29,031 nucleotides of DNA from Candidatus Helarchaeota archaeon (GCA_029838215.1 JALGVI010000061.1:1-29031), one strand, 5' to 3'; counted from the stretch's first letter, positions 1 to 20,616 are shown. The notes: generated from the letters alone by a model not told the origin. Numbers and translations are program-made.

Positions 1-45
1 CGTGAATCTTCCGATTTATTCATGAAGAAAACTGAGGAACTGAAC

Positions 46-804
46 ATGTCGTCATTTGAGAATGAAAGTGTCAAGCGGGCCATTCAAGACTTGAACGTGG
101 GAAAATTCATCCTTGTTTATGATGTTGATGGTCGTGAGGAAGAGGTAGACTTGGTAGTTTTAGCCGAAAAAGTTACAAATGAACACGTTTACCATTTGCG
201 TCATGATGCGGGTGGTTTGATCTGTATTGCCATGGATAAAAAGATTGGTGATGGTTTAGGACTCCCATTTATGGCAGAAGTGTATTCAAAGCTGCGGAGT
301 GAATATCAAATTTTCGAATCCGTTGCACCATATGGTCATAAAGAGGAACGTTGTAGTTATGGCGACAAGCCTTCTTTTAGCATTACCATAAACCATCGCA
401 ATACACGTACAGGAATAACGGACCATGATCGTGCACTAACAATTTCAGAATTTGCAAAGCTTGGACGACAAGTATTTCACAACGGAGTGGATCCGGTGGC
501 ATATCGCGAGCAATTTGGTAAGAATTTTAGGGCTCCCGGACACACGCATTTACTTTTAGCTGCGCCTCAATTGTTGAAGGATCGAAAAGGACACACGGAA
601 TTAACGGTTACTTTGGCTCGGTTAGGAAATTTGACACCCGTTATTGTTCTCTGCGAAATGCTTGATGGCAAGACAGGTAGAGCACTTTCCTTGAAAAAAG
701 CGCGAGAATATGCCCGAGAACATGGTTTGGTAATGGTCGAAGGCAAGGAAATCATAAGCGCATTTAACGAGCAGTTCAAGGAGTTATTCATTCAAAATGC
801 CTAA
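46..804 (+). CDS. ribB: 3,4-dihydroxy-2-butanone 4-phosphate synthase, archaeal type
   Basis: Motifs REEEVD (cf. RENEGD), GGLICIA, TGITDHDRALT, PGH, RKGHTE, LCEML. ATG at 46 is preferred over 22 because GAGGA lies just upstream (34-38). The frame is also open back to position 1. Confidence 0.95.
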   Translation: MSSFENESVKRAIQDLNVGKFILVYDVDGREEEVDLVVLAEKVTNEHVYHLRHDAGGLICIAMDKKIGDGLGLPFMAEVYSKLRSEYQIFESVAPYGHKEERCSYGDKPSFSITINHRNTRTGITDHDRALTISEFAKLGRQVFHNGVDPVAYREQFGKNFRAPGHTHLLLAAPQLLKDRKGHTELTVTLARLGNLTPVIVLCEMLDGKTGRALSLKKAREYAREHGLVMVEGKEIISAFNEQFKELFIQNA

Positions 805-1270
805 AATAAAAGTTGGCATTGCAGACACGACCTTTGCCCGCGTGGACATGGGTGCCATGGCAATTGACGAGCTCCTTCAATTGACATCTAAAATCGAAGT
901 TGTCCGATATACTGTTCCTGGAATGAAGGATTTACCTGTTGCTTGTAAGATACTTTTTGAGCAACATGATTGTGCGATTTGCATGGCTATAGGGATGCCG
1001 GGACCTGCTGATAAAGATAAAATCTGTGCGCACGAAGCGTCGCAAGGAATTATCAATTGTCAATTGCAAACAGGCAGGCACATTATCGAATGTTTTGTCC
1101 ACGAAGATGAAGCAGAAACTCCGAAAGAATTAATAGAAGTATGTGAAAATCGGTCGCGAAAACACGCACGTAATATTTTTTATCTTTTATTTGATAAAAA
1201 ATGGTTCATAAAAAATGCAGGAAAGGGTCTTCGGCAGGGATTTCCTGATGCGGGACCCATAAAAGCTTGA
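797..1270 (+). CDS. ribC: Riboflavin synthase, archaeal (lumazine-synthase-like pentameric) type
   Basis: N-terminal KVGIADTTFARVDMG, RYTVPGMKDLPVACK, GMPG..DK.CAHEAS and HIIECFVHEDE are typical of the archaeal enzyme. Overlaps the ribB stop. Confidence 0.93.
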   Translation: MPKIKVGIADTTFARVDMGAMAIDELLQLTSKIEVVRYTVPGMKDLPVACKILFEQHDCAICMAIGMPGPADKDKICAHEASQGIINCQLQTGRHIIECFVHEDEAETPKELIEVCENRSRKHARNIFYLLFDKKWFIKNAGKGLRQGFPDAGPIKA

Positions 1271-1284
1271 AAATGGTGTGAAAC

Positions 1285-1713
1285 ATGTCTGAAGAAATAC
1301 GATTAGGATTTGTCGTGGGTGAATTCCATTACGACATCACTAGCATGATGCTTGAAAAAGCTAAAGAACACGCCGAATTCCTCGGTTGTAAGGTAATTAC
1401 CGTCTTTAAGGTTCCTGGTAGCTTTGACATGCCTTTAGCAATTAAGACTCTATTAAAGCGAGATGATATTGATGCCGTGGTTTGTATTGGTGCCGTTATC
1501 ACGGGTGATACGGATCATGACCAAATTGTTGCTCAGCACGCTGCACGAAAAATGGTAGATCTATCTTTGGAATTTGATAAACCCGTTGCTTTGGGTGTAT
1601 CGGGACCGGGCATGACAAGGCTTGAAGCCGTTGAAAGAATCGAAGATTTTGCACGGCGTTCTACAGAAAGCGCGGTAAAAATGGTTAAGAGAAAAAGAGA
1701 ACAATCTAAATGA
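1285..1713 (+). CDS. ribH: 6,7-dimethyl-8-ribityllumazine synthase
   Basis: [41 protein letters not shown] motifs; position in the rib operon. Confidence 0.95.
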
Positions 1714-1723
1714 GGAACTATCT

Positions 1724-2479
1724 TTGATTCAAATTACAATAATCCAATTAGATAATTTTGGTCCATACACGGAAACGCTAGGTGACGATAGAGAGCATGA
1801 TGTCCAAATAGTATTGGCAAAAGCTTACCTGCTCTTGCAGGATCTTTTCAGCCGGAAGAATGGGCTTGTTTTTCAAGCCTCCAAGGACAACATGATCGCC
1901 GTGACCAATGGAATCTCCATCAAAGAACACGAACAAATCATGAATCTATTCGAGCAAGAACTTCAAATCACGTGTTCCATGGGGATTGGTGTGGGAATAA
2001 CACCGATGGAAGCTCAGATAAAAGCTTCTAGAGCCCTGCAAAAGATGGGTAGTGCACAATCTTCTCGTCGGAAAGTTCTTGCGAATAATGGATCGATTCC
2101 AGAACCAAATGGAGCCATTCATATCGCCCACGTAGACATCAACGATTTCACGATTCACGCGACAGATAAAAATCCCATTTATGATAATTTTTATTTACTA
2201 AATCGAAGTTATCTCACGCTAATGGAGTCATTCCAAAAAATCGGAGCACTCTGTTTTTTTAATGGAGGAGATAACTTCGTTACAATTTGTCCTGAGAATT
2301 TCCCTCTTGATGAATTCAAGCGAATTATTTCAAATTATGAAAGACTCCATAGTCCATGGAAGCTGAAAGCAGGGATTGGAAAGGGCGACACTGCAAAAAT
2401 TGCCATGCTAAATGCGAATAAAGGATTGACAACCATTCGAAAGCACGAATCGGAAGACATGATTGTTTTGGTGGAGTAG
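1724..2479 (+). CDS. arfA: GTP cyclohydrolase III (IIa)
   Basis: IQITIIQLDNFGPYTETLGDDREHDVQ start; duplicated cyclase-like halves with KDN and GGDN motifs; TTG start after GAGGA. Confidence 0.9.
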   Translation: MIQITIIQLDNFGPYTETLGDDREHDVQIVLAKAYLLLQDLFSRKNGLVFQASKDNMIAVTNGISIKEHEQIMNLFEQELQITCSMGIGVGITPMEAQIKASRALQKMGSAQSSRRKVLANNGSIPEPNGAIHIAHVDINDFTIHATDKNPIYDNFYLLNRSYLTLMESFQKIGALCFFNGGDNFVTICPENFPLDEFKRIISNYERLHSPWKLKAGIGKGDTAKIAMLNANKGLTTIRKHESEDMIVLVE

Positions 2480-2482
2480 CGT

Positions 2483-3667
2483 GTGTCCTCAAATACTCTT
2501 TTTGTAAAACATGCCTTGATTGGAGAAGAATTGGAGCTCAAGCAAAACGTCGAATTGAAGTATTCTGAAGGATACATCGATAGGATTTCCATTGACGTCA
2601 AGGCATCGACTGAACCCAAAATCACGGATTGTCTTTTGATTCCAGGGCTCATTAACGGTCATACCCATATCGGTGATTCTTTTGCGAAGGAAATGGGGTA
2701 TGGAAAGACACTTTCAGAGGTAGTTGAGCCTCCAAACGGGATTAAGCATCGACTTCTATCAACCGTTTCCCAAGAAGAACTCATTTCTGGGATGAGATTA
2801 GCGATTAGGGAAATGCTTTCTAGTGGAACAACGTTATTTGCAGATTATCGAGAAGGTGGAATTGATGGCATTTATGCATTAAAGCAATTATTAAAAGAGA
2901 GCATGATTAAAAGCATCATTCTCGGGCGACCTCACCCTACGGTTGACATGGAGAAGTTGCAAAACGTTTTAAAAATGTCGGATGGTCTCGGAATCAATTC
3001 AATAAACCTCCTATCCGATTCCGAGTTAGAACTCGCGAAATTATTTTGCGTGGAAGGTCAGAAAATTATCTCGACCCATGCGTCAGAAACAAGCCAAGAA
3101 CGTGACATTTCTTTTCAAAAACACGGTAAATCAGACATCGAGCGAGCCATTAACACTTTCAATGCAGAGTATTTGATCCATTGCATTTATAGTAACGACA
3201 ATGACTTGGATTTGATAGCAAAAAAGAACGTTGCCGTAGGAATCTGTCCACGGGCTAACCATTATTTTGGCTTAGACGTGCCTCCCATCCAAAAGATGAT
3301 TGAACGTGACATAACGCTTTGTCTGGGAACGGATAACGTGATGGCAAATTCACCGGATCTCTTTCGTGAAATGGAATTTTTGGCGAAATATGCCTGTCAT
3401 TTGAAGAATCCCATTCCAGCAAGAGAGATTTTAAAGATGGTGACCATCAATCCTGCTCGTGTATTTCGCCTCGATCACATACTTGGATGCTTGAAAGAAA
3501 TGAACAGGGCAGATTTTTTTCTTCTTGATCTTACAGCACCAAATCTCCGTCCTATTAATCAATCTCATATCTATGAGACCATCGTATTACGTGCAAAAGC
3601 AAGTAATGTAGTTTCAACACACGTTAATGGCATGAAAACCCACGACCGGAGGGAGTTGCTGTCCTAA
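2483..3667 (+). CDS. Metal-dependent amidohydrolase-superfamily deaminase (candidate pyrimidine deaminase of riboflavin synthesis)
   Basis: PGLINGHTHIGD (HxH), THASE (HxxE), LIHC, LGTDN (catalytic Asp) and the C-terminal beta-sandwich strands. GTG start after GGTGGAG. The family is well supported; the specific function is inference. Confidence 0.85.
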   Translation: MSSNTLFVKHALIGEELELKQNVELKYSEGYIDRISIDVKASTEPKITDCLLIPGLINGHTHIGDSFAKEMGYGKTLSEVVEPPNGIKHRLLSTVSQEELISGMRLAIREMLSSGTTLFADYREGGIDGIYALKQLLKESMIKSIILGRPHPTVDMEKLQNVLKMSDGLGINSINLLSDSELELAKLFCVEGQKIISTHASETSQERDISFQKHGKSDIERAINTFNAEYLIHCIYSNDNDLDLIAKKNVAVGICPRANHYFGLDVPPIQKMIERDITLCLGTDNVMANSPDLFREMEFLAKYACHLKNPIPAREILKMVTINPARVFRLDHILGCLKEMNRADFFLLDLTAPNLRPINQSHIYETIVLRAKASNVVSTHVNGMKTHDRRELLS

Positions 3668-3690
3668 CCGACATCACCATCCCAAAATCT

Positions 3691-4377
3691 CGTCCGTATG
3701 TCATATTAAATGCAGCCATGAGTGTTGACGGCAAAATTGCTTCCAGAGTAGGGGATTGCGAGTTCTCTGATGACGAAGATTGGAAGCGCGTTCACAAGTT
3801 GCGTGCAAGCGTAGACGCGATCATGGTCGGCAGGAGGACAATTGAAACAGACGATTCGAAGTTGACGATAAAATCATTTCCAGATTTTAAAATTCCTATT
3901 TCAAAATTCCCCACGAGAGTCGTGGTTGATGGTTTGGCGAAGACACCAGCCACGGCGCGGATATTCACCGTAGAATTGGAACATTATCCATCAATTCTCG
4001 CTACTACGACAAATGCCCCGAAAGAGAAACTTGACGAAATCAGAGCATTAGGCGTGAAAGTATTGGTTTGTGGGAAGGGACCTCGAGTTGATCTCGTTCA
4101 CTTGATGAGAGACCTCCGCACGATGAACATTCGAACGCTCCTTTTAGAAGGTGGTGGAACTTTAAATTTCAGCATGTTGGAGAATGATTTAATAGATGAG
4201 GTGAGCCTTTCTGTGGCGCCTGTTCTTGTTGGTGGACTATCAGCCACTTCATTAATTGGTGGAAAGGGCTTTGATAAAATTAAGCAATCCTGTCAATTAG
4301 AACTCATTGAATTCGAAAAACTCGGAAAGAACCTCTTCGTGCGATATTTGGTTCGACGGAATGGCGAAAAAACGTGA
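3691..4377 (+). CDS. arfC: 2,5-diamino-6-ribosylamino-4(3H)-pyrimidinone 5'-phosphate reductase (RibD C-terminal domain family); true start unresolved
   Basis: RPYVILNAAMSVDGKIA, RVHKLRASVDAIMVG, LLLEGGGTLNFS, APVLVGG. The conserved RPYVILNAA (3691-3717) lies upstream of the first ATG (3718). Confidence 0.9.
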   Translation, partial: RPYVILNAAMSVDGKIASRVGDCEFSDDEDWKRVHKLRASVDAIMVGRRTIETDDSKLTIKSFPDFKIPISKFPTRVVVDGLAKTPATARIFTVELEHYPSILATTTNAPKEKLDEIRALGVKVLVCGKGPRVDLVHLMRDLRTMNIRTLLLEGGGTLNFSMLENDLIDEVSLSVAPVLVGGLSATSLIGGKGFDKIKQSCQLELIEFEKLGKNLFVRYLVRRNGEKT

Positions 4378-5033
4378 AAAGGAAAATACTTCCCATTGGT
4401 TCATTCGAACAGCACGGTCCACACCTACCGTTAGAAACAGATTCACTCATTGCAGAAAAAATTTCTCGAGAACTCTCGCGAAATATTCAGGCAGACCTCC
4501 TAGAGACGATCAAGGTGAGCTGTTCCGATGAACACGCGGATTTTTCAGGAACTAAAAGCATTTCAGGGGAAACTTTCGAAGAATTAATAATTAAAGTACT
4601 TAAAAAAGAACTCAATTCCACGCAACAATTAATTGTTTTCAATGCGCATGGTGGAAATTCTCAAATACTTAAGAAAATTGCAAGATCCAATCCAGAAGTC
4701 CTATTTCTCGATTTATTTGAAACCATTAAAGGCCATCTCATCCAAACCCGCGATTCTTCTTTGGGTGGAATATGTCATGCAGGTGAATTTGAGACTTCGT
4801 TAATGATGTATTTGTTTCCATCTTTAGTAAGGGTTCAAGAAATCAAGCCTGAAATCGTAACGCTCGTTCCAGAGCTCGACCCGGATTTTGACGGTAATCC
4901 GCCAAAAACGTGGAAGACGATAAAATTTAGTAAATCGGGCGTATTAGGAGATCCAACGAAAGCAACCAAATCAAAAGGGGAAGCTTGGTTTAAAATAATA
5001 ATTAAAGAATGCTTGAATCGCATTAATTGTTAA
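4374..5033 (+). CDS. arfB: Creatininase-family formamide hydrolase (FAPy 5'-phosphate deformylase)
   Basis: LPIGSFEQHGPHLPLETD, SDEH, NAHGGN, HAGEFETS metal-site motifs; GTGA overlap with the arfC stop; context with arfA and arfC. Confidence 0.85.
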   Translation: MKRKILPIGSFEQHGPHLPLETDSLIAEKISRELSRNIQADLLETIKVSCSDEHADFSGTKSISGETFEELIIKVLKKELNSTQQLIVFNAHGGNSQILKKIARSNPEVLFLDLFETIKGHLIQTRDSSLGGICHAGEFETSLMMYLFPSLVRVQEIKPEIVTLVPELDPDFDGNPPKTWKTIKFSKSGVLGDPTKATKSKGEAWFKIIIKECLNRINC

Positions 5034-5053: not shown

Positions 5054-6313
5054 TTAATCTTTTTCTAGCTGATCCAATTTCGTGAAGATTATCTTCTTTG
5101 CCTGAATCCATTTCTCATATTCTTGCTTACAATTAGCATCCAGACCGAATTTTTGAAAAGTGGGTAGGTTTCCTTCAATCCAATTCGCCAAATCAGTATC
5201 GTAACCATCAATGCTGGTCCGTAATTCTTGACTTCGCGATACGACCAGTTCCATTAGCTCTGAAAGTTGTGTCATGTAATATGAAATACTTTCAGTAATG
5301 TTCTTTTCCATCTCTACTAGGAGGTTTTTAACAGGTTCTGGACTTGCCACGGTGACCGTCTTCTCGGCTACTTCACCGGGTCTAACAATTTCTTCCTTGA
5401 CACCTTCTGGTGCTAGTTGGTTGATGATATCTTTTATGGTATCTAGAAAAATCTGAGTTTTTTGATCTCCAAATTCCCCACTTATCGTATTAACTATGGT
5501 TCCAGCTTCGGAGAGAATTGGAGTGAATCCCTGTTTCAGGTCAAATAGACATTGGTATATCAAAGGTTCATTCTCCATTTGACCAGCATGACAAGTCATC
5601 ACGCCGCGCTTTTGATCTGTAAACACGACGGTAATTATAGGAGACCCAAGTCCGGTGCTTTCACCTTTTTCTTTAATGACGGCATCTAATGACAATAGTC
5701 CCCCTCCAAATGCATCAGCATCAACATTAATTTGATCTTGTTTATGAAAGGCAATTGGCAATCCCAACTCATTCGTAATGCTTTGTACAAGAATGAGCGG
5801 ATTTTTACCTTGAGTGAGAACGGCATCAATCACGTCGAAATCATCAATGGCTTCTTGATATATCCCAATGGAAGAAGCAGATCCTCTATATAACGTAGGG
5901 AGAACTTCAGATACACCTCTCACGACGGAGAAATCATAGCCTTGGAGTCCTAACTCATTTATCCACATATTTACAAGATCATTTAATGATGAACTAATAA
6001 CATCCGTGTCCAACGCAAATTGATCGCGATGGTCTAACAAAATTATGAGATATCCCAATCCAATTTCGATCCCGATGATGGTAAGATCATGAAAAATTGA
6101 GATGTGAACGACTTCTTTCCCTAGATTAAGGAATTCGCAAATTTCCTGAGCCGCCTTATAGCAACTCGACTCCATCGCCCCTAACCCTTCAATGGGTGAA
6201 ATTCGCAGGACTTTAGAGATAACCAACCCTACCTTATCACATATCAAGACTTCTTTTATTGATCTCGATGATCGCAAGATTTTTGCAAGTATTGTTTGAG
6301 GAGATATTGACAT
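5054..6313 (-). CDS. Protein with two Roadblock/LC7-like domains and a C-terminal helical/coiled-coil region
   Basis: Two alpha-beta-beta-alpha-beta-beta-beta-alpha units, each with the D/N-x-x-G-L hairpin signature (ICDKVGLVI; ITNELGLPI), followed by an amphipathic helical tail. Confidence 0.7.
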   Translation of the reverse strand: MSISPQTILAKILRSSRSIKEVLICDKVGLVISKVLRISPIEGLGAMESSCYKAAQEICEFLNLGKEVVHISIFHDLTIIGIEIGLGYLIILLDHRDQFALDTDVISSSLNDLVNMWINELGLQGYDFSVVRGVSEVLPTLYRGSASSIGIYQEAIDDFDVIDAVLTQGKNPLILVQSITNELGLPIAFHKQDQINVDADAFGGGLLSLDAVIKEKGESTGLGSPIITVVFTDQKRGVMTCHAGQMENEPLIYQCLFDLKQGFTPILSEAGTIVNTISGEFGDQKTQIFLDTIKDIINQLAPEGVKEEIVRPGEVAEKTVTVASPEPVKNLLVEMEKNITESISYYMTQLSELMELVVSRSQELRTSIDGYDTDLANWIEGNLPTFQKFGLDANCKQEYEKWIQAKKIIFTKLDQLEKD

Positions 6314-6481: not shown

Positions 6482-7939
6482 TTATTCGTCCTTTATCCAT
6501 TTGCTTTCAAATTTTTTTCCAGGGTTCAAGATATTATTCGGATCAAATACTTTTTTAATTTGCAACATGTAATCAATTGCTTTTCCGTGTTCATATTGGT
6601 TGAATCCTCCAAGACGATCTCCGTCTCCAATGTATGTTGACATTGTTCCTTCTAAATCGACTGCCATTTTTGACATGTCTTTCACGTAAGCGTAAAAGTG
6701 CTTCACTTCGTCAGGATCCATGTCATTCACGAAAACCGCAAATGAGATACTTGGTCCTATCCTATTTGGACGTTGCATGTATACGCACATGCCGAGAACA
6801 TCGATTTGATGTTTTTCCGTAAAATATAGATATTTTTCGTATGCTTCTTCTATTCTCCCGATGGGAATTCCCAAGTCGGCAGCTCCAAATTTCTTTTGCC
6901 GTTGAGAGTCAGGCCATTTTTGGTTAAATGGTTCAAATTCTAGCGTGTGTTTACTCTTCCACCAACTTCCCGTTAAATCCACTTCCTTCACGCGCTGTCC
7001 ACCGTGTTCATTTAACAACTTGAGGCAATATTTCTGCGAAAAATCGACCACTTCTTCATCCCCGCCAAAGGAAATGAATAAGAGAGCTGCTGCCCATTCA
7101 GGAATTTCTGGATCCTTTCCGTGTTTCATTCGATATGCGTGCGTGTAAAATCCCAATCGTTTTTTACAGTTAACATGAGCTGATTCAATACATAATCCGG
7201 CTTGTAACACGCGAATTAGCCCCTGAATGGCGTTTTTTACGGATGGAAAAATAATGGCTTCGATTCGTCTTTCCTTGGGAATGGGAAATATTTTCAACGT
7301 GCATTCTGTAATGACACCCAACGTTCCCTCTGCATTGATCATTAGCCAGTGTAATTTATAACCCGTGGAAGAACAGAGAGCTTTGCGATGTCCGAAGCGA
7401 ACGATGTCTCCAGTACCGGTAACCAGCACGAGATTTAACAAGTAATCGCCAATTTTTCCATATTTGATTCCAAATGTACTATCATTATCACAAGAAATAG
7501 CAGCTCCAACAGTAGACGAAGGTTTGGATTCAGGATCGTGCGGCCACCATAAATCGTATTTACTCAGTTCTTCATTCAATTTCAGAACCGTAATCCCTAC
7601 TTGCGTTGTTACGGTTAAATTCTCGGGATCCACCTCGATGACCTTGTCAAGCCCTTTAGAATCGATTACAATGCATCCATCAATTGGGACGGCTCCACCT
7701 CCCATTCCGGTCAAACCCGCTGCAGTCACGACAGGAATCTCATGTCTATTTGCAATGGATACAGCTTTTGACACGTCATCCGTGGTTCGTGGTCTCACGA
7801 CAATGCTGGGTAAGTGAGTTTCGGTCGATGGTCTTGGCGACCAATCCCGTGAATACGTCATTGAGTGAAACGAATCCGTTACGACTTTATCCTTACCAAT
7901 TGCAGCTCGAATTTCTTCAGCTATCTTTTCTACGTCCAC
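6482..7939 (-). CDS. FAD-linked oxidoreductase (VAO/PCMH fold, GlcD/D-lactate dehydrogenase-like), substrate unknown
   Basis: PSIVVRPRTTDDV, AGLTGMGGGAVP, STVGAAI, AEGTLGVITEC, KKVFDPNNILNPGK. GTG start. Confidence 0.88.
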   Translation of the reverse strand: MDVEKIAEEIRAAIGKDKVVTDSFHSMTYSRDWSPRPSTETHLPSIVVRPRTTDDVSKAVSIANRHEIPVVTAAGLTGMGGGAVPIDGCIVIDSKGLDKVIEVDPENLTVTTQVGITVLKLNEELSKYDLWWPHDPESKPSSTVGAAISCDNDSTFGIKYGKIGDYLLNLVLVTGTGDIVRFGHRKALCSSTGYKLHWLMINAEGTLGVITECTLKIFPIPKERRIEAIIFPSVKNAIQGLIRVLQAGLCIESAHVNCKKRLGFYTHAYRMKHGKDPEIPEWAAALLFISFGGDEEVVDFSQKYCLKLLNEHGGQRVKEVDLTGSWWKSKHTLEFEPFNQKWPDSQRQKKFGAADLGIPIGRIEEAYEKYLYFTEKHQIDVLGMCVYMQRPNRIGPSISFAVFVNDMDPDEVKHFYAYVKDMSKMAVDLEGTMSTYIGDGDRLGGFNQYEHGKAIDYMLQIKKVFDPNNILNPGKKFESKWIKDE

Positions 7940-8025
7940 GTAAACGCCACCAAAAAATTGAAGATGTTAAAAAACTCTACTTATTAACTAATGATTCATG
8001 TTGTTTTAAGGATATTGATCTTGCA

Positions 8026-8790
8026 ATGACCACGAAATGCATTATTTTTTTAGGTCCTGCGGGTGCGGGTAAGAGCTGCCTCTGTGGCACATTCGGAAGC
8101 TGGTTGAAACGTGAAAAATATGGAGTCAAATACGTGAACCTCGATGCTGCCACTAACTACATACCTTACAAAGCCGATTTCGACATTCGAGATTTTTTTA
8201 CAACTCAGGAAATCATGAAACAAGAGAAAATTGGTCCGAATGGCGCAATCTTGAGAGCAAATGAAAAGATCAACGAATTTTTTAACGTAATACTCGAATC
8301 ATTCGTATCGTGGAAGACCGAATTCATTCTAATTGACACGCCAGGTCAACTTGAAACATTTATTTTTCAACCATCCGGTCCGACATTCCTGCAAAATCTT
8401 CAGGAACATTTCGATACTGTTGGTATTTATCTCTTGGATGTTGAAACATTTGGCAAAAAATCACGAGCAAGTGAACTCGTGGTGAATTTACTTCTTTATA
8501 CAGCAGTGTTATTGAAAATTAACATAAATATTTTACCCGTATTATCAAAATCAGATAAAATTTCACGGGAAAGAGACCTCAGGAAAATGTTGCAGGACAC
8601 ATTATATTTGAAACAAGTAATCATGGAAAACAATGATATTGGAGCCATAAAAGGAGTCGTTTTACCAATAATCGAGCATATTTTGGAACCTTTTGCTCGG
8701 GTAATCTTGACTTCTAGTAAAACGAACGATTTTTCAAGCCTTTTCTCCTTGATCCACGAAAATTTCTGCTCTTGTGGAGACTTGTCCTGA
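8026..8790 (+). CDS. GPN-loop GTPase (SIMIBI class)
   Basis: Walker A GPAGAGKS, NLDAA, IGPNGAI (GPN loop), DTPGQLE, SKSD, C-terminal CSCGDL. True start is ATG 8026, not 7684. Confidence 0.93.
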   Translation: MTTKCIIFLGPAGAGKSCLCGTFGSWLKREKYGVKYVNLDAATNYIPYKADFDIRDFFTTQEIMKQEKIGPNGAILRANEKINEFFNVILESFVSWKTEFILIDTPGQLETFIFQPSGPTFLQNLQEHFDTVGIYLLDVETFGKKSRASELVVNLLLYTAVLLKININILPVLSKSDKISRERDLRKMLQDTLYLKQVIMENNDIGAIKGVVLPIIEHILEPFARVILTSSKTNDFSSLFSLIHENFCSCGDLS

Positions 8791-12506: not shown

Positions 12507-13157
12507 TCATCCGCCTTTCATTATACTCTTCAGGCGTTTTAATTCCTTCAACATTTCGTCCCGAAGACCTAATATTCCGCCCCCAGCAGGGGCTCCTGCA
12601 GGCTTAGGTGCAGAAGCCGCAGTCAAGGGAGATGCAGCCATAGGAGGTTTTACCATCGGAGGTCCCGCAGAGGGAGGCATTCTTGAAGGTCCGCCCACGG
12701 GTTTTGGGGGTCCCGCCATCGGTTTTGGAAGTCCACCCACGGGTTTTGGGGGTCCCGCCATCGGCTTTGGAGGTCCGCCCATCGGCTTTGGAGGTCCGCC
12801 CATCGGCTTTGGAGGTCCGCCCATCGGCTTTGGAGGTCCGCCCATCGGCTTTGGAGGTCCGCCCATCGGCTTCAATTGTGGCTCGACTTTTTGTCCCGTG
12901 AGAAGACTAATAAGCCGCGATCGTGAATCCACATCTTTAGAAGCCCGAAGTGTTGAGCGAAGTACACCAGCATCCATACCCGATCTTTCGGGAGCAGATA
13001 TGCCAAGATTTTGAAGGTCGGCACGGACTTTTTGAAGAGAATCCATTAGAGTATTAAGTGAAGAAGTAACATCATCTATAGTATCTTTAAAGTTATCTAG
13101 AGCATTATAGAGAAATCCTACTACACGTTCTATGACTTTTTCCTTATCTTCAACCAT
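12507..13157 (-). CDS. Coiled-coil / proline-rich repeat protein with C-terminal amphipathic (WH2/VASP-like) helix
   Basis: N-terminal heptad helix, nine KPMGGPP-type repeats, Pro/Ala linker, terminal GGILGLRDEMLKELKRLKSIMKGG. GGTGATG SD-like motif upstream. Confidence 0.8.
   Translation of the reverse strand: MVEDKEKVIERVVGFLYNALDNFKDTIDDVTSSLNTLMDSLQKVRADLQNLGISAPERSGMDAGVLRSTLRASKDVDSRSRLISLLTGQKVEPQLKPMGGPPKPMGGPPKPMGGPPKPMGGPPKPMGGPPKPMAGPPKPVGGLPKPMAGPPKPVGGPSRMPPSAGPPMVKPPMAASPLTAASAPKPAGAPAGGGILGLRDEMLKELKRLKSIMKGG
12685..12873. repeat. Intragenic 21-bp tandem repeat, 9 units
   Basis: Unit GGAGGTCCGCCCATCGGCTTT: four exact copies plus one single-mismatch copy at 12769-12873, and four degenerate copies at 12685-12768. 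Confidence 0.97.
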
Positions 13158-17024: not shown

Positions 17025-17858
17025 TCATTTTTTTTCTTCAGACTCGATTTTAAAAAGTCGCACGTATGGTTTGAAATATTTTTCAACAATTTTGTCAATA
17101 TCTTGAAATGCTTGAAGATCACCTGTTTGAAATTTTTTAAATGCCACGGGATATTCCTTGATAAATTCATCCAAGCATAATTTAAAATTGATCTTAACTT
17201 CTTTCGTAACGATATTGACAACCAACACGCCAATAATCTGTTCATGCATTAGTAAAATGATTTTATAACCGGTATCTTCATTTTCAATGATTTTATAACT
17301 GAGGTCATCAGCATCTTCGATAAATTGCATTACTTCAGGTTCAGCATCTATATTGAGAGTTTTTTCCAATAATGAATAAATCTGATTAACCTTTTTTTGT
17401 TTTTTATCTAATTGGAAAATATAAATTCCGATAATGTGGATGATTTTTTGATAAATATCGGGGCGCGTGGCAATAACGTCATCTATTGTAATGACTCCAA
17501 CCGGTCGATTTTTCTTTGTCATGACAGGTAGTCTCATGACTTTATTCTGGTTAAATAATTCAGCGGCTTCTTCAAGTGAAGCATTTTCATTTATGCTAAT
17601 GATTGGAGACATGATTTCTTGAACGTTGATTTGACGGATGTCGTGAGTGATCTTATCCAAATCCACGAGAACCTTGAATAGATCATATATAGTAACGACG
17701 CCAACAAATTTATTATTAAAAGTGATGAGAACTATTTCAACATCATGATCCGTCATGATTTTTGCTACGTCATAAATTGAATCGAAGGCATTGGCAATCC
17801 TGAGTTCCCTGGTCATTATCTGCTTGACGGTTTCGTATTTAAAAGGAGTGTCCGGCAA
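17025..17858 (-). CDS. CBS-pair (Bateman) protein with C-terminal longin-like domain
   Basis: VKQIMT, FVGVVTIYDL, VQEIMS, RLPVM, PVGVITIDDV form the CBS pair. Residues about 138-277 show a longin-like secondary-structure pattern (tentative). Confidence 0.8.
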   Translation of the reverse strand: MPDTPFKYETVKQIMTRELRIANAFDSIYDVAKIMTDHDVEIVLITFNNKFVGVVTIYDLFKVLVDLDKITHDIRQINVQEIMSPIISINENASLEEAAELFNQNKVMRLPVMTKKNRPVGVITIDDVIATRPDIYQKIIHIIGIYIFQLDKKQKKVNQIYSLLEKTLNIDAEPEVMQFIEDADDLSYKIIENEDTGYKIILLMHEQIIGVLVVNIVTKEVKINFKLCLDEFIKEYPVAFKKFQTGDLQAFQDIDKIVEKYFKPYVRLFKIESEEKK

Positions 17859-17917
17859 AATTACTCACGAAAGTGCCTAAATTCCATTCAATTTTAACTT
17901 ACGTAATTAAACGAGAA

Positions 17918-18328
17918 TCATTTTTCATTTGGTAGAACGATAGTTGGTTCGTGTGTCTGCATTTTATATAATAGTGAAATGGCATCGTACATTGAAAGAA
18001 CACCGTGCAATTTACCTTCTTTAAGAATCGCAATTGCTTTTACGCTTTTTTCTGCCATCAGTTTAATGGCATCTAGAAATTCGGTGCCTTCCCTGATTGT
18101 TTCTATGGGACCCATTAAGTCCCTCGCCGTAACCGAATTGGGATCTTTTCCTTCAATGATGCAAGTTTTTAATAGCGTATTTTTAATGATGGCTCCGAGA
18201 ACTTTCTCATCTTTGTCCACGACAATGGCTGTTAATATATTTGGTTCTGTTAATTTCTTGGTGACTTTTAGCGCTGAATCTTCAGGTTTTACGGTCGTGT
18301 ATTCGTCCGAAAGATATTCAATTTTCAT
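17918..18328 (-). CDS. Stand-alone CBS-pair protein
   Basis: TTVKPEDS, AIVVDKDEKVLGAI, TARDLM, AIAILKEGKLHGVLSMYD. Confidence 0.88.
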   Translation of the reverse strand: MKIEYLSDEYTTVKPEDSALKVTKKLTEPNILTAIVVDKDEKVLGAIIKNTLLKTCIIEGKDPNSVTARDLMGPIETIREGTEFLDAIKLMAEKSVKAIAILKEGKLHGVLSMYDAISLLYKMQTHEPTIVLPNEK

Positions 18329-18476
18329 TTTATAATGACTCCGAATAAAATGAATTCTTGCAATAATTGGTATGAAACTTAATTTCTCTGAGATGATAAT
18401 TAAATTTATCTCAGATGTTCTTTAAATTTGCTTTGAAAAAAATTAGATAAAAACAAAAAAAGAGAATATAAGTGCT

Positions 18477-20510
18477 TTAGATTTTCAGAGCGGCTTTCAT
18501 TCCTTCAGCAGTCGCTTCTAGGGCGGTTCTTGGTTTCTTTGCATCTCCAACCTTCTTTAGAAAAGTTTCTTTTGGCAACATTTCTTTGAGTTGATTGAAC
18601 AGCTTGTCATTGGACCTGACACCTACGGCGAGAACTATGGAATCGGCTTCCAGAAATTCTTGCTTGCCTTCTTTTTCAACGAGAACTCCAAAGGGTTTTT
18701 CAGTGATTTCAACGGCTTTTGTTTTGGGAATCATTTTGACGCCTCTCACGGCCAGATCTTTTAGAATGGTCCACCTGGTTGTAGGTCCGATTCCTCCACC
18801 CAAACTACCGAGCATCTCGATAACGGTAATGTCACGAGATTTCATTGACATCTGAAGAGCATCTTCAGGAGTCAGGGCTTTCCATTGCATTAAAAACATG
18901 GCTTGTTCATTAGTCAAGCTCCCTTCTTCTGCAAGGTATAATGCGGTTTCGCATCCCACGCCAGCACCACCAACAACGACGACTCTTTTTCCAGCATGTC
19001 TTCGCTTTGCCAGAATATCATAGGCATGAATTATCCTCGGATCGTCTTTCTTCATGCCTGGAATCTTGAGTTCTATTGGACTTGATCCCGTTGCCACGAT
19101 CACGGCATCGGCTCCCATTTCAATGATCATGTCTGCATCAATCTTGCTACCGAGATGTACCTTAACGCCCACTTTGGGAAGGATTCGTTCGTACCATTTT
19201 ATCAGTTCGTGAAATTCAGATCGACCCGGAGGCATTCCCGCATATCTCAAATCACCTCCAAGTTCATCTTCCGCTTCGAATAATGAGACATTGTGCCCCC
19301 TTAGAGCTGCCACTCGTGCGGCTTCACATCCTCCGGGACCGCCTCCGATCACTACGACCATTTTCTTTTTATCTGCAGGAGTTATCTTCCGTTTTTCTTC
19401 AAAACCGACTTGTGGATTTGCAGTACAAGTAATGGGACTAGCGGAGAAAACGGCATCAAAGCAACCTTGGTTGCAAGCAAGACAATGGCGGATTTCGTCA
19501 TATCTTCCTGTTTTTGTTTTCACCAAGAATTCAGGATCTGTTATCAACGCTCGCCCAAGAGCAATTATGTCCACGCGTTCTTGTCGCAAAACCGATTCTG
19601 CCAATAACGGATCACTTATGCGATTCGCCATGGATACCAGTACTCCCGTTCCTTCCACGGCGTTTTTAATGTTTTCGCCCAGATAAACGTAAGTACCTCG
19701 TGGCACGTTCATTGTCAGTTGTGGTATTCCTGTTTCATGCCAACCACCAGTCACGTTTATGAGGTCAATTTGTCCGGCTTGTGCAAGGGATTTCATTATA
19801 GGTGCGATCTCTTTATACGAGTTGCTACCCGGAACCATGTCATCTCCAGCAGCCCGATATATTACCAAGAAATCCTTTCCAACTTGTTTTCGAACTGCCG
19901 CAGTAACTTCGTGCATGAATCGCATTCGATTTTCAAGACTTCCTCCATACTCATCAGTTCGAAGATTTGTCAGGGGTGAGAGGAATTGACATATGAGATA
20001 ACCGGCAGAACCGATGATTTCGACGCCATCAAACCCTGCTTCCTTTGCCATGGCAGCACCACTTGCAAACTCCTGAATTGCATTCTTGATTTCATCAATA
20101 GTCATTTCACGTGGTGTTTCTTTTGTGAATTTAGTGTAAACCGCAGATGGACCAATGGCTTGTTTCTTACCACCAGGCATGGTGAAACTGTGAACATAGC
20201 GACCTCCATGATAAAGCTGGGCGGCACAAGGACATCCTACTTCGTGCATCGCATTAGCAAAATCGGTTAATCCTGGTAAAAACTTGTCATCATCCAATCC
20301 AATCATGGTTACAGGGCCCGCTAGAGGTCCAATTCGACATCCACCAATGAGAATGATTCCCACGTCATTTTTCGCACGTTCTAGGTAAAAATCGATAAGT
20401 CGCGGAGTAACGAACCCATCACCCTTTGTCATTCCTGTATGCATTGCAGGCATTAAGGTGCGTGTTCGTAATCGAGTCTGATTTACCGTGATTGGTTCTA
20501 ATAACTTCAT
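18477..20510 (-). CDS. fadH: 2,4-dienoyl-CoA reductase (FadH-type OYE TIM barrel + 4Fe-4S + FAD domain)
   Basis: MPAMHT, QLYHGGRY, GFDGVEIIGSAGYLI, RTDEYGGSLENR, GWHE, CLACNQGC..C, GGGPGG, GGAGVG. ATG 20510 preferred over 20582. Confidence 0.88.
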   Translation of the reverse strand: MKLLEPITVNQTRLRTRTLMPAMHTGMTKGDGFVTPRLIDFYLERAKNDVGIILIGGCRIGPLAGPVTMIGLDDDKFLPGLTDFANAMHEVGCPCAAQLYHGGRYVHSFTMPGGKKQAIGPSAVYTKFTKETPREMTIDEIKNAIQEFASGAAMAKEAGFDGVEIIGSAGYLICQFLSPLTNLRTDEYGGSLENRMRFMHEVTAAVRKQVGKDFLVIYRAAGDDMVPGSNSYKEIAPIMKSLAQAGQIDLINVTGGWHETGIPQLTMNVPRGTYVYLGENIKNAVEGTGVLVSMANRISDPLLAESVLRQERVDIIALGRALITDPEFLVKTKTGRYDEIRHCLACNQGCFDAVFSASPITCTANPQVGFEEKRKITPADKKKMVVVIGGGPGGCEAARVAALRGHNVSLFEAEDELGGDLRYAGMPPGRSEFHELIKWYERILPKVGVKVHLGSKIDADMIIEMGADAVIVATGSSPIELKIPGMKKDDPRIIHAYDILAKRRHAGKRVVVVGGAGVGCETALYLAEEGSLTNEQAMFLMQWKALTPEDALQMSMKSRDITVIEMLGSLGGGIGPTTRWTILKDLAVRGVKMIPKTKAVEITEKPFGVLVEKEGKQEFLEADSIVLAVGVRSNDKLFNQLKEMLPKETFLKKVGDAKKPRTALEATAEGMKAALKI

Positions 20511-20616
20511 TAATTTCACCTGATTTAAATAAAAATTAATCTCATTCAAGAATTCATGTTCATAATAAATAAAAAAAATCACAAATAAATGCTTTTTTCA
20601 AAAATTAAAGACGATA

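Follow-up and report, generated by a model that had tools for sequence, protein, structure and literature searches.

What could be the function of a protein that joins a pair of CBS motifs (a Bateman module) to a C-terminal domain without any direct match in Pfam? The question is raised by a gene encoding 277 aa in a Candidatus Helarchaeota archaeon (positions 17025-17858 on the minus strand, with a TTG start and the stop codon at 17025-17027), hereafter called CBS-longin. All positions are those of the window, i.e., the whole stretch of 29,031 nucleotides that was analysed, which is an entire 29-kb contig (C168) of a genome of 3.6 Mb that is 94% complete. A gene encoding 136 aa lies upstream on the same strand (17918-18328), separated from CBS-longin by 59 nt. 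It matches the CBS family of Pfam in two stretches (1.1e-13), so the stand-alone CBS-pair gene that a sequence-only reading of the window had placed there is real, and the pair is retained at the locus of an orthologue (L011), in the same order and with a gap of 57 nt. The next gene upstream encodes a 701-aa flavoprotein with Oxidored_FMN and Pyr_redox_2 domains in Pfam (18477-20582, minus strand). It is a conserved neighbour: the gene order flavoprotein, CBS, CBS-longin is common to both genomes. Positions 18387-18415, which are downstream of the flavoprotein gene and precede the stand-alone CBS gene by around 60-90 nt, form an inverted repeat of 8 bp without mismatch, TCTGAGAT ... ATCTCAGA, around a spacer of 13 nt, which is a possible operator or terminator.

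The orthologue (P0005, from a genome labelled Candidatus Helarchaeales archaeon) is 82-83% identical to the CBS-longin protein. The first 14 residues are conserved between the two at the protein level, and we thus place the start of CBS-longin at or near the TTG codon. Between the two genes, pN is 0.10 and pS is 0.83 (saturated), with a pN/pS of around 0.12 in the CBS and longin halves alike. Judging from this comparison of sequences, both halves of the gene are under purifying selection. The low pN against a saturated pS in both of them indicates that the CBS and the C-terminal halves are functional coding sequence.

The N-terminal half is readily classed. The Pfam CBS profile (PF00571) matches it in two stretches, with a total of 79.4 bits for a cut-off of 24 (E 2.4e-22). 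The first motif, around aa 11-65 (17664-17828, minus strand; 39.7 bits), includes G53-V-V-T56-I-Y-D59, and the second, around aa 79-130 (17469-17624, minus strand; 51.9 bits), includes G121-V-I-T124-I-D-D127. This is a canonical CBS pair, in agreement with the clear Bateman module described earlier from the sequence. The pattern G-h-h-T-x-x-D is present in both motifs, at positions that are identical or conservatively replaced in the orthologue, and corresponds to G-h-h-[ST]-x-x-[DN], which we take to be the ribose-binding signature of CBS motifs for adenosyl ligands. The nearest relative of known structure is MJ1225 (3kh5, E 6.8e-15). Further solved relatives of the pair include PH1780, AcuB, CBSX (plant CBSX1/2), and AMPK gamma. 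MJ1225 is reported to bind adenine nucleotides. Two potential sources of the fused CBS pair within the genome were considered and rejected. One is recent duplication of the upstream CBS gene, but the two proteins show no BLASTP similarity at E<1e-3. The other is duplication of a CBS gene found near a Rag module on another contig (C83), and here too the answer is negative; the best paralogue of the fused pair is 26% identical.

The identity of the C-terminal half had to be sought by less direct means. Pfam has no match for aa 131-277, even at E<=1; phmmer with the same segment against 1.84 billion representatives returns only the protein itself or its cluster; and a pairwise search of its own genome with the C-terminal domain reveals no significant paralogue. 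The sequence-only reading had recognised a longin topology by eye in this region. The absence of a direct match in Pfam leaves room for a different reading, in which the domain is not a true longin and is instead a Roadblock/LC7-, profilin-, or GAF-like alpha/beta sandwich, or a lineage-specific look-alike of longins. Published work also shows that the roadblock and longin folds have a common core (PMC10933270).

We modelled aa 131-277 with AF2 from an alignment of 31 sequences (pLDDT 74.9, pTM 0.72). The predicted domain starts with two strands, at aa 142-151 (IIGIYIFQLD) and aa 156-164, followed by a helix (aa 174-182) and three more strands, at aa 186-192 (LSYKIIE), aa 199-205, and aa 208-214. 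A long helix (aa 219-235) comes next, then two short ones and another long helix (aa 254-273) that completes the fold, and the chain ends around 10 residues further on. The beta-beta-alpha-beta-beta-beta-alpha-alpha order that had been read by eye is thus borne out by the model, with nearly the same segments. The confidence of the model is medium overall and is lowest in the second strand and the first helix. When the full-length protein was modelled from a shallow composite alignment (pLDDT 59.8, with less than 55 in the CBS half), a helix was drawn in place of the second strand, a result that speaks for a fold other than longin.

The structural comparisons point to longins. We compared the AF2 domain model exhaustively with 48,161 PDB chains. 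The top match is the longin domain of VAMP7 (Z 12.5, 120 residues, 3.4 A), and other longins follow: SYBL1 (Z 12.0), synbindin (11.3), Sec22 (11.1), the SRX domain of the SRP receptor (10.6), and the longin domain of a Roadblock-Longin protein of Lokiarchaeota (8yqg_B, Z 10.6 over 130 residues). The next matches are the sigma and mu chains of AP complexes, Fuzzy, Lst4, NPRL, DENND, Mon1, and Ccz1. The solved longins superpose along 108-130 residues of the model, the C-terminal helices included. Roadblock, MglB, and LAMTOR folds match too (Z 7.5-8.3), as expected if the domain were one of them, but around 30 different longin-containing entries rank above the first Roadblock match, and the Roadblock alignments stop at around residue 108 of the model and therefore do not cover the C-terminal helices. 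The model also departs from Roadblock/LC7 in its architecture: the sole N-terminal helix has four residues, in a block with a mean pLDDT of 54, and there are two C-terminal helices. The bb-a-bbb-a-a order, with two helices at the end and no confident one at the start, is that of a longin and not of a Roadblock domain. The searches of structure databases gave similar results. The best Foldseek matches, a check proposed with the original reading, are longins (Ykt6 longin, E 1.3e-4). A shape search of the ESM Atlas retrieved hypothetical proteins of Asgard archaea, Arf-type GTPases of Thorarchaeota with an extra domain, and clusters of YKT6 and sybindin, and a feature search of the same resource gave weak scores (0.76-0.79), one of which corresponds to a Fuz_longin_1 cluster. 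The shape search also matched an HTH_47 cluster.

A sequence-level connection to longins was obtained through the relatives of the domain. A word-indexed search with the CBS-longin protein finds the 83%-identical orthologue alone. Six-frame searches of seven genomes of the order revealed weak matches (3.5e-6 to 8e-3) that correspond to a recurrent domain of around 130 aa in diverse proteins. Once aligned, these domains show one common secondary-structure pattern and a W-x-G-x4-F motif. The profile built from this alignment matches the C-terminal domains of MFS transporters and 265-aa proteins of Helarchaeota at 1e-26 to 1e-42, and scores the CBS-containing pair (the fusion and its orthologue) at 1e-31 to 1e-33. 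In the genome under study, the family profile (A2) has 51 matches, in open frames that range from 75 to 1695 aa. CBS-longin is thus a member of a Helarchaeales longin family present in around 50 copies.

Pfam scans of 30 of these paralogues show that most lack any Pfam domain. Three match PF19036 (Fuz_longin_1, the first longin domain of FUZ/MON1/HPS1): one of them reaches the cut-off, with exactly the gathering score, and the two others are just below it. All five PF19036 matches of the genome, and its single PF13774 match, fall within the 51-member set, and 14 control genomes have no match to PF19036 or PF13774. An hhalign comparison of the family alignment with the three PF19036-matching paralogues, which are not part of that alignment, gives a probability of 98.3% (E 2.2e-14, 131 columns). 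The connection of CBS-longin to the longin families of Pfam is therefore transitive, via these paralogues, and the family profile compared with the sequences of the PDB gives chance-level matches only (E>0.2). The lack of a sequence match in the PDB, like that in Pfam, would fit a look-alike of longins, but the profile-profile link to the Fuz_longin_1 paralogues runs against it, as do the topology and the ranking of the structural matches, and we find it very improbable that the domain is anything other than a longin. We assign to the predicted longin fold aa 142-273 (17040-17435, minus strand), based on the AF2 model, the structural matches, and the family profile (match at 17058-17444, 98.3 bits). 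The fold and the transitive profile evidence together place the domain in the longin expansion of Asgard archaea, as one of its divergent members.

The proteins that carry the family domain in Helarchaeota are varied: besides MFS transporters and other proteins of the membrane, they include TPR-like and wHTH proteins. The architecture seen most often in the subfamily has the domain at the cytoplasmic C-terminus of MFS transporters of around 500-530 aa (P0007-P0020, Helarchaeota; L009). Two other proteins (L006:1303-2415 and L007:1114-2424) have the domain at the N-terminus, followed by repeated winged helices of the HTH_47/DUF742 type. A simple hydropathy scan classed around one-third of the paralogues as membrane proteins, which suggests that the family domain serves as a general cytoplasmic docking module. 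Some family paralogues are adjacent and on the same strand (C60:3074-4552, C160:40606-42561, and C109:64893-67369). Transmembrane segments are predicted in both genes of the C160 and C109 pairs and in one gene of the C60 pair. These pairs of paralogues may encode heterodimers.

Do these longins work with GTPases? The sequence-only reading had proposed a one-protein link between energy status and GTPase signalling. In such a scheme, CBS-longin would sense adenylate energy and directly control a small GTPase, as GAP, GEF, or platform, and the AMPK-Ragulator/FLCN axis would have a counterpart in archaea. At the level of the family, such a link finds some backing. Dimers of roadblock and longin domains are known as interaction and GTPase platforms (PMC10933270). 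The genome holds 70 matches to Arf/Ras-type GTPases, and nine of the 51 family matches are within 1.5 kb of such genes, compared with 3.1 +/- 1.7 in random placements (maximum of 10 in 2000 trials). In one paralogue (L075), the family domain is at the N-terminus of an Arf/Roc/Ras GTPase. Another one (184 aa, contig C83, L083:4875-7129) is 3 nt before a Gtr1/RagA-like GTPase (320 aa), and a Ras-family GTPase (181 aa) comes next. A CBS gene of 132 aa is located 1.4 kb upstream of this last module, on the other strand and behind a radical-SAM gene.

The copy studied here fits the proposal poorly. We found no Ras-superfamily GTPase of the Arf, Ras, or Rag type on the 29-kb contig. The only GTPase that it encodes is a GPN-loop protein (7684-8790, plus strand; PF03029 ATP_bind_1, 7.3e-43), which is 8 kb away and is not a switch of the Ras superfamily. 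The paralogues next to GTPases are distant members of the family, whereas the 16 best-scoring ones (CBS-longin itself excluded), which are the nearest to the CBS-longin subfamily, have no GTPase within 4.7 kb. Furthermore, not a single arginine occurs in the longin core (aa 133-267, flanked by R132 and R268), and the two arginines that the orthologue has in the region of helix 3 are glutamines in CBS-longin and are thus not conserved. These two observations exclude an arginine finger of the FLCN/NPRL2/SMCR8 type. We tried CBS-longin as a GAP of this type and rejected it: it has no arginine finger, no DENN or other C-terminal domain, and no cognate GTPase on the contig. The gene pair is also known from two genomes only. 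In the proposed link of an energy sensor to GTPases, what stands is the association of the family, whose members are enriched beside GTPases or fused to them; its extension to this copy is not supported. Direct regulation of a small GTPase by CBS-longin seems unlikely to us, and gene context indicates no partner for the longin domain.

The rest of the contig has a few other genes worth describing. A 419-aa protein (5054-6313, minus strand), 11 kb from CBS-longin, has no Pfam match (best E 0.088). Inspection by eye suggests two Roadblock-like alpha-beta-beta-alpha-beta-beta-beta units followed by a helical tail; it is the protein that had been described earlier as a tandem Roadblock. A 216-aa protein (12507-13157, minus strand), also without a Pfam family, has an N-terminal helix, a series of K-P-M/V-G-G-P-P repeats (around nine), and a basic, helical end that is short. 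The start of the window (22-5033, plus strand) is occupied by a co-oriented riboflavin run that includes DHBP synthase, two DMRL-synthase-like genes, GTP cyclohydrolase III, an amidohydrolase, RibD_C, and a gene of the creatininase family.

The conserved neighbourhood raises another possibility, namely that the role of the longin domain is limited to oligomerising or scaffolding the protein and that the two CBS proteins target a neighbouring enzyme, such as the FMN/FAD flavoprotein, in the manner of plant CBSX proteins, which tune redox enzymes. The succession of flavoprotein, CBS, and CBS-longin genes in both genomes fits this idea, and so do two further observations: the CBS pair has CBSX1/2 among its relatives of known structure, and a thioredoxin-reductase-like gene is located nearby. 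However, an Rce1-like gene on the opposite strand is inserted between the flavoprotein and the CBS genes in the orthologous locus (L011), and these genes therefore do not form one operon there. The comparison involves only two related genomes, and the synteny may reflect simple inheritance. Finally, the occurrence of the longin family on many unrelated proteins is better accounted for by a general docking module than by a scaffold dedicated to this enzyme. An enzyme next door as the target of the CBS proteins is, in our view, quite unlikely.

We consider it somewhat more likely than not that CBS-longin is a soluble, ligand-gated longin adaptor whose function involves the CBS protein encoded next to it. 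The N-terminal Bateman module, with its two CBS motifs, would be the sensor and the C-terminal longin domain the output. Binding of an adenosyl ligand, for which AMP, ADP, ATP, SAM, and similar compounds are candidates, would change the conformation or the pairing of the Bateman module, by analogy with IMPDH, MgtE, CNNM/CorC, ClC, CBS-pyrophosphatase, and AcuB. Depending on this change, the longin domain would or would not be able to dock onto a partner protein. In a dimer of CBS modules, the second Bateman module would probably come from the 136-aa CBS neighbour. Candidate partners of the longin domain could be found among the around 50 longin/roadblock paralogues or the around 70 small GTPases of the genome.

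A more ambitious version of the ligand-gated adaptor can be formulated. CBS-longin and its CBS neighbour would together form a four-CBS adenylate sensor, with the longin domain docking a Rag/Arf-like GTPase or a longin/roadblock platform for one. The comparison with AMPK gamma shows how the arrangement differs from a four-motif chain bound to a kinase scaffold: the fusion chain has two CBS motifs, and the two others are in the neighbouring gene. No kinase was found near CBS-longin by Pfam analysis of the genes of the contig. We regard the four-CBS sensor as distinctly improbable. If true, it would provide a direct, one-protein link from energy charge to small-GTPase signalling in Asgard archaea, so that the logic of the AMPK-Rag/FLCN axis would have a forerunner in prokaryotes.

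How widespread is the CBS-longin combination? When the full-length protein was searched against 160 other genomes of the class (E<=1e-12), no orthologue was returned. Among the matches listed in the family-profile searches ('longer' length class), PF00571 was present only in CBS-longin and its orthologue. As far as these sequence searches reach, the gene pair appears confined to two genomes, this one and one relative. Given this narrow distribution, the role of CBS-longin may be minor or very local. We did not find the combination in the literature that we searched. It is known that the longins of Asgard archaea are heavily shuffled, which results in narrow, lineage-specific fusion architectures, that Asgard archaea have 130 asCOGs of the Roadblock superfamily, and that NPRL2-like longins are fused to two-component domains (bioRxiv 10.1101/2020.10.19.343400). 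CBS-longin is a new domain combination within a well-known and heavily shuffled class of Asgard proteins. The longin and roadblock proteins of Asgard archaea are regarded as the material from which the GTPase regulators of eukaryotes were built. CBS-longin, as a simple, soluble protein of two domains whose input and output can both be assayed in vitro, could reveal what an archaeal longin binds and whether metabolites gate this binding. Its value for this purpose is limited by its presence in two genomes only and by a gene context that points to no partner.

Among the systems closest to this protein are the longin complexes FLCN-FNIP, NPRL2-NPRL3 (GATOR1), and C9orf72-SMCR8. They have the longin fold in common with CBS-longin (Z 8.6-9.7), and the notion of nutrient or energy sensing linked to a longin module is alike. 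In contrast to these GAP complexes, CBS-longin lacks the arginine finger, the DENN or other C-terminal domain, and a nearby Rag/Arf GTPase gene. The closest matches in structure are other eukaryotic longins: those of the SNARE type (VAMP7, Sec22, Ykt6), the TRAPP subunits synbindin and sedlin, and the first longin domain of the Mon1/Fuz/HPS1 group (PF19036), with Z of 10-12.5 over 108-127 residues. These are tied to CBS-longin at the sequence level by the family paralogues that reach PF19036. However, the identity is only 6-12%, and CBS-longin lacks the SNARE motif and the TRAPP or tri-longin context and has a prokaryotic sensor attached.

On the sensor side, the closest system is MJ1225 of Methanocaldococcus jannaschii (3kh5/3lfz), in which, as in the fusion, the CBS motifs are canonical and include the Thr/Asp signature of ribose binding. 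MJ1225 includes four CBS motifs in one chain of 280 residues, whereas here two are fused to the longin domain and two are in a separate neighbouring gene. To our knowledge, MJ1225 has no output domain.

Also among the nearest systems are the other longins of Asgard archaea (PMC10933270; bioRxiv 10.1101/2020.10.19.343400; 8yqg), which have the same fold, as seen in the match to the Lokiarchaeota structure. The expansions are of similar kind: 41 longin domains are known in Lokiarchaeum, where GTPase-longin fusions have been described (PMC10933270), against the 51 profile matches of this genome. In the published Asgard longins and in this family alike, the domain is fused to signalling, membrane, or GTPase domains. 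The published fusions involve GTPases, Roadblock, TRAPPC3/V4R, and two-component domains, whereas the partner here is a CBS pair.
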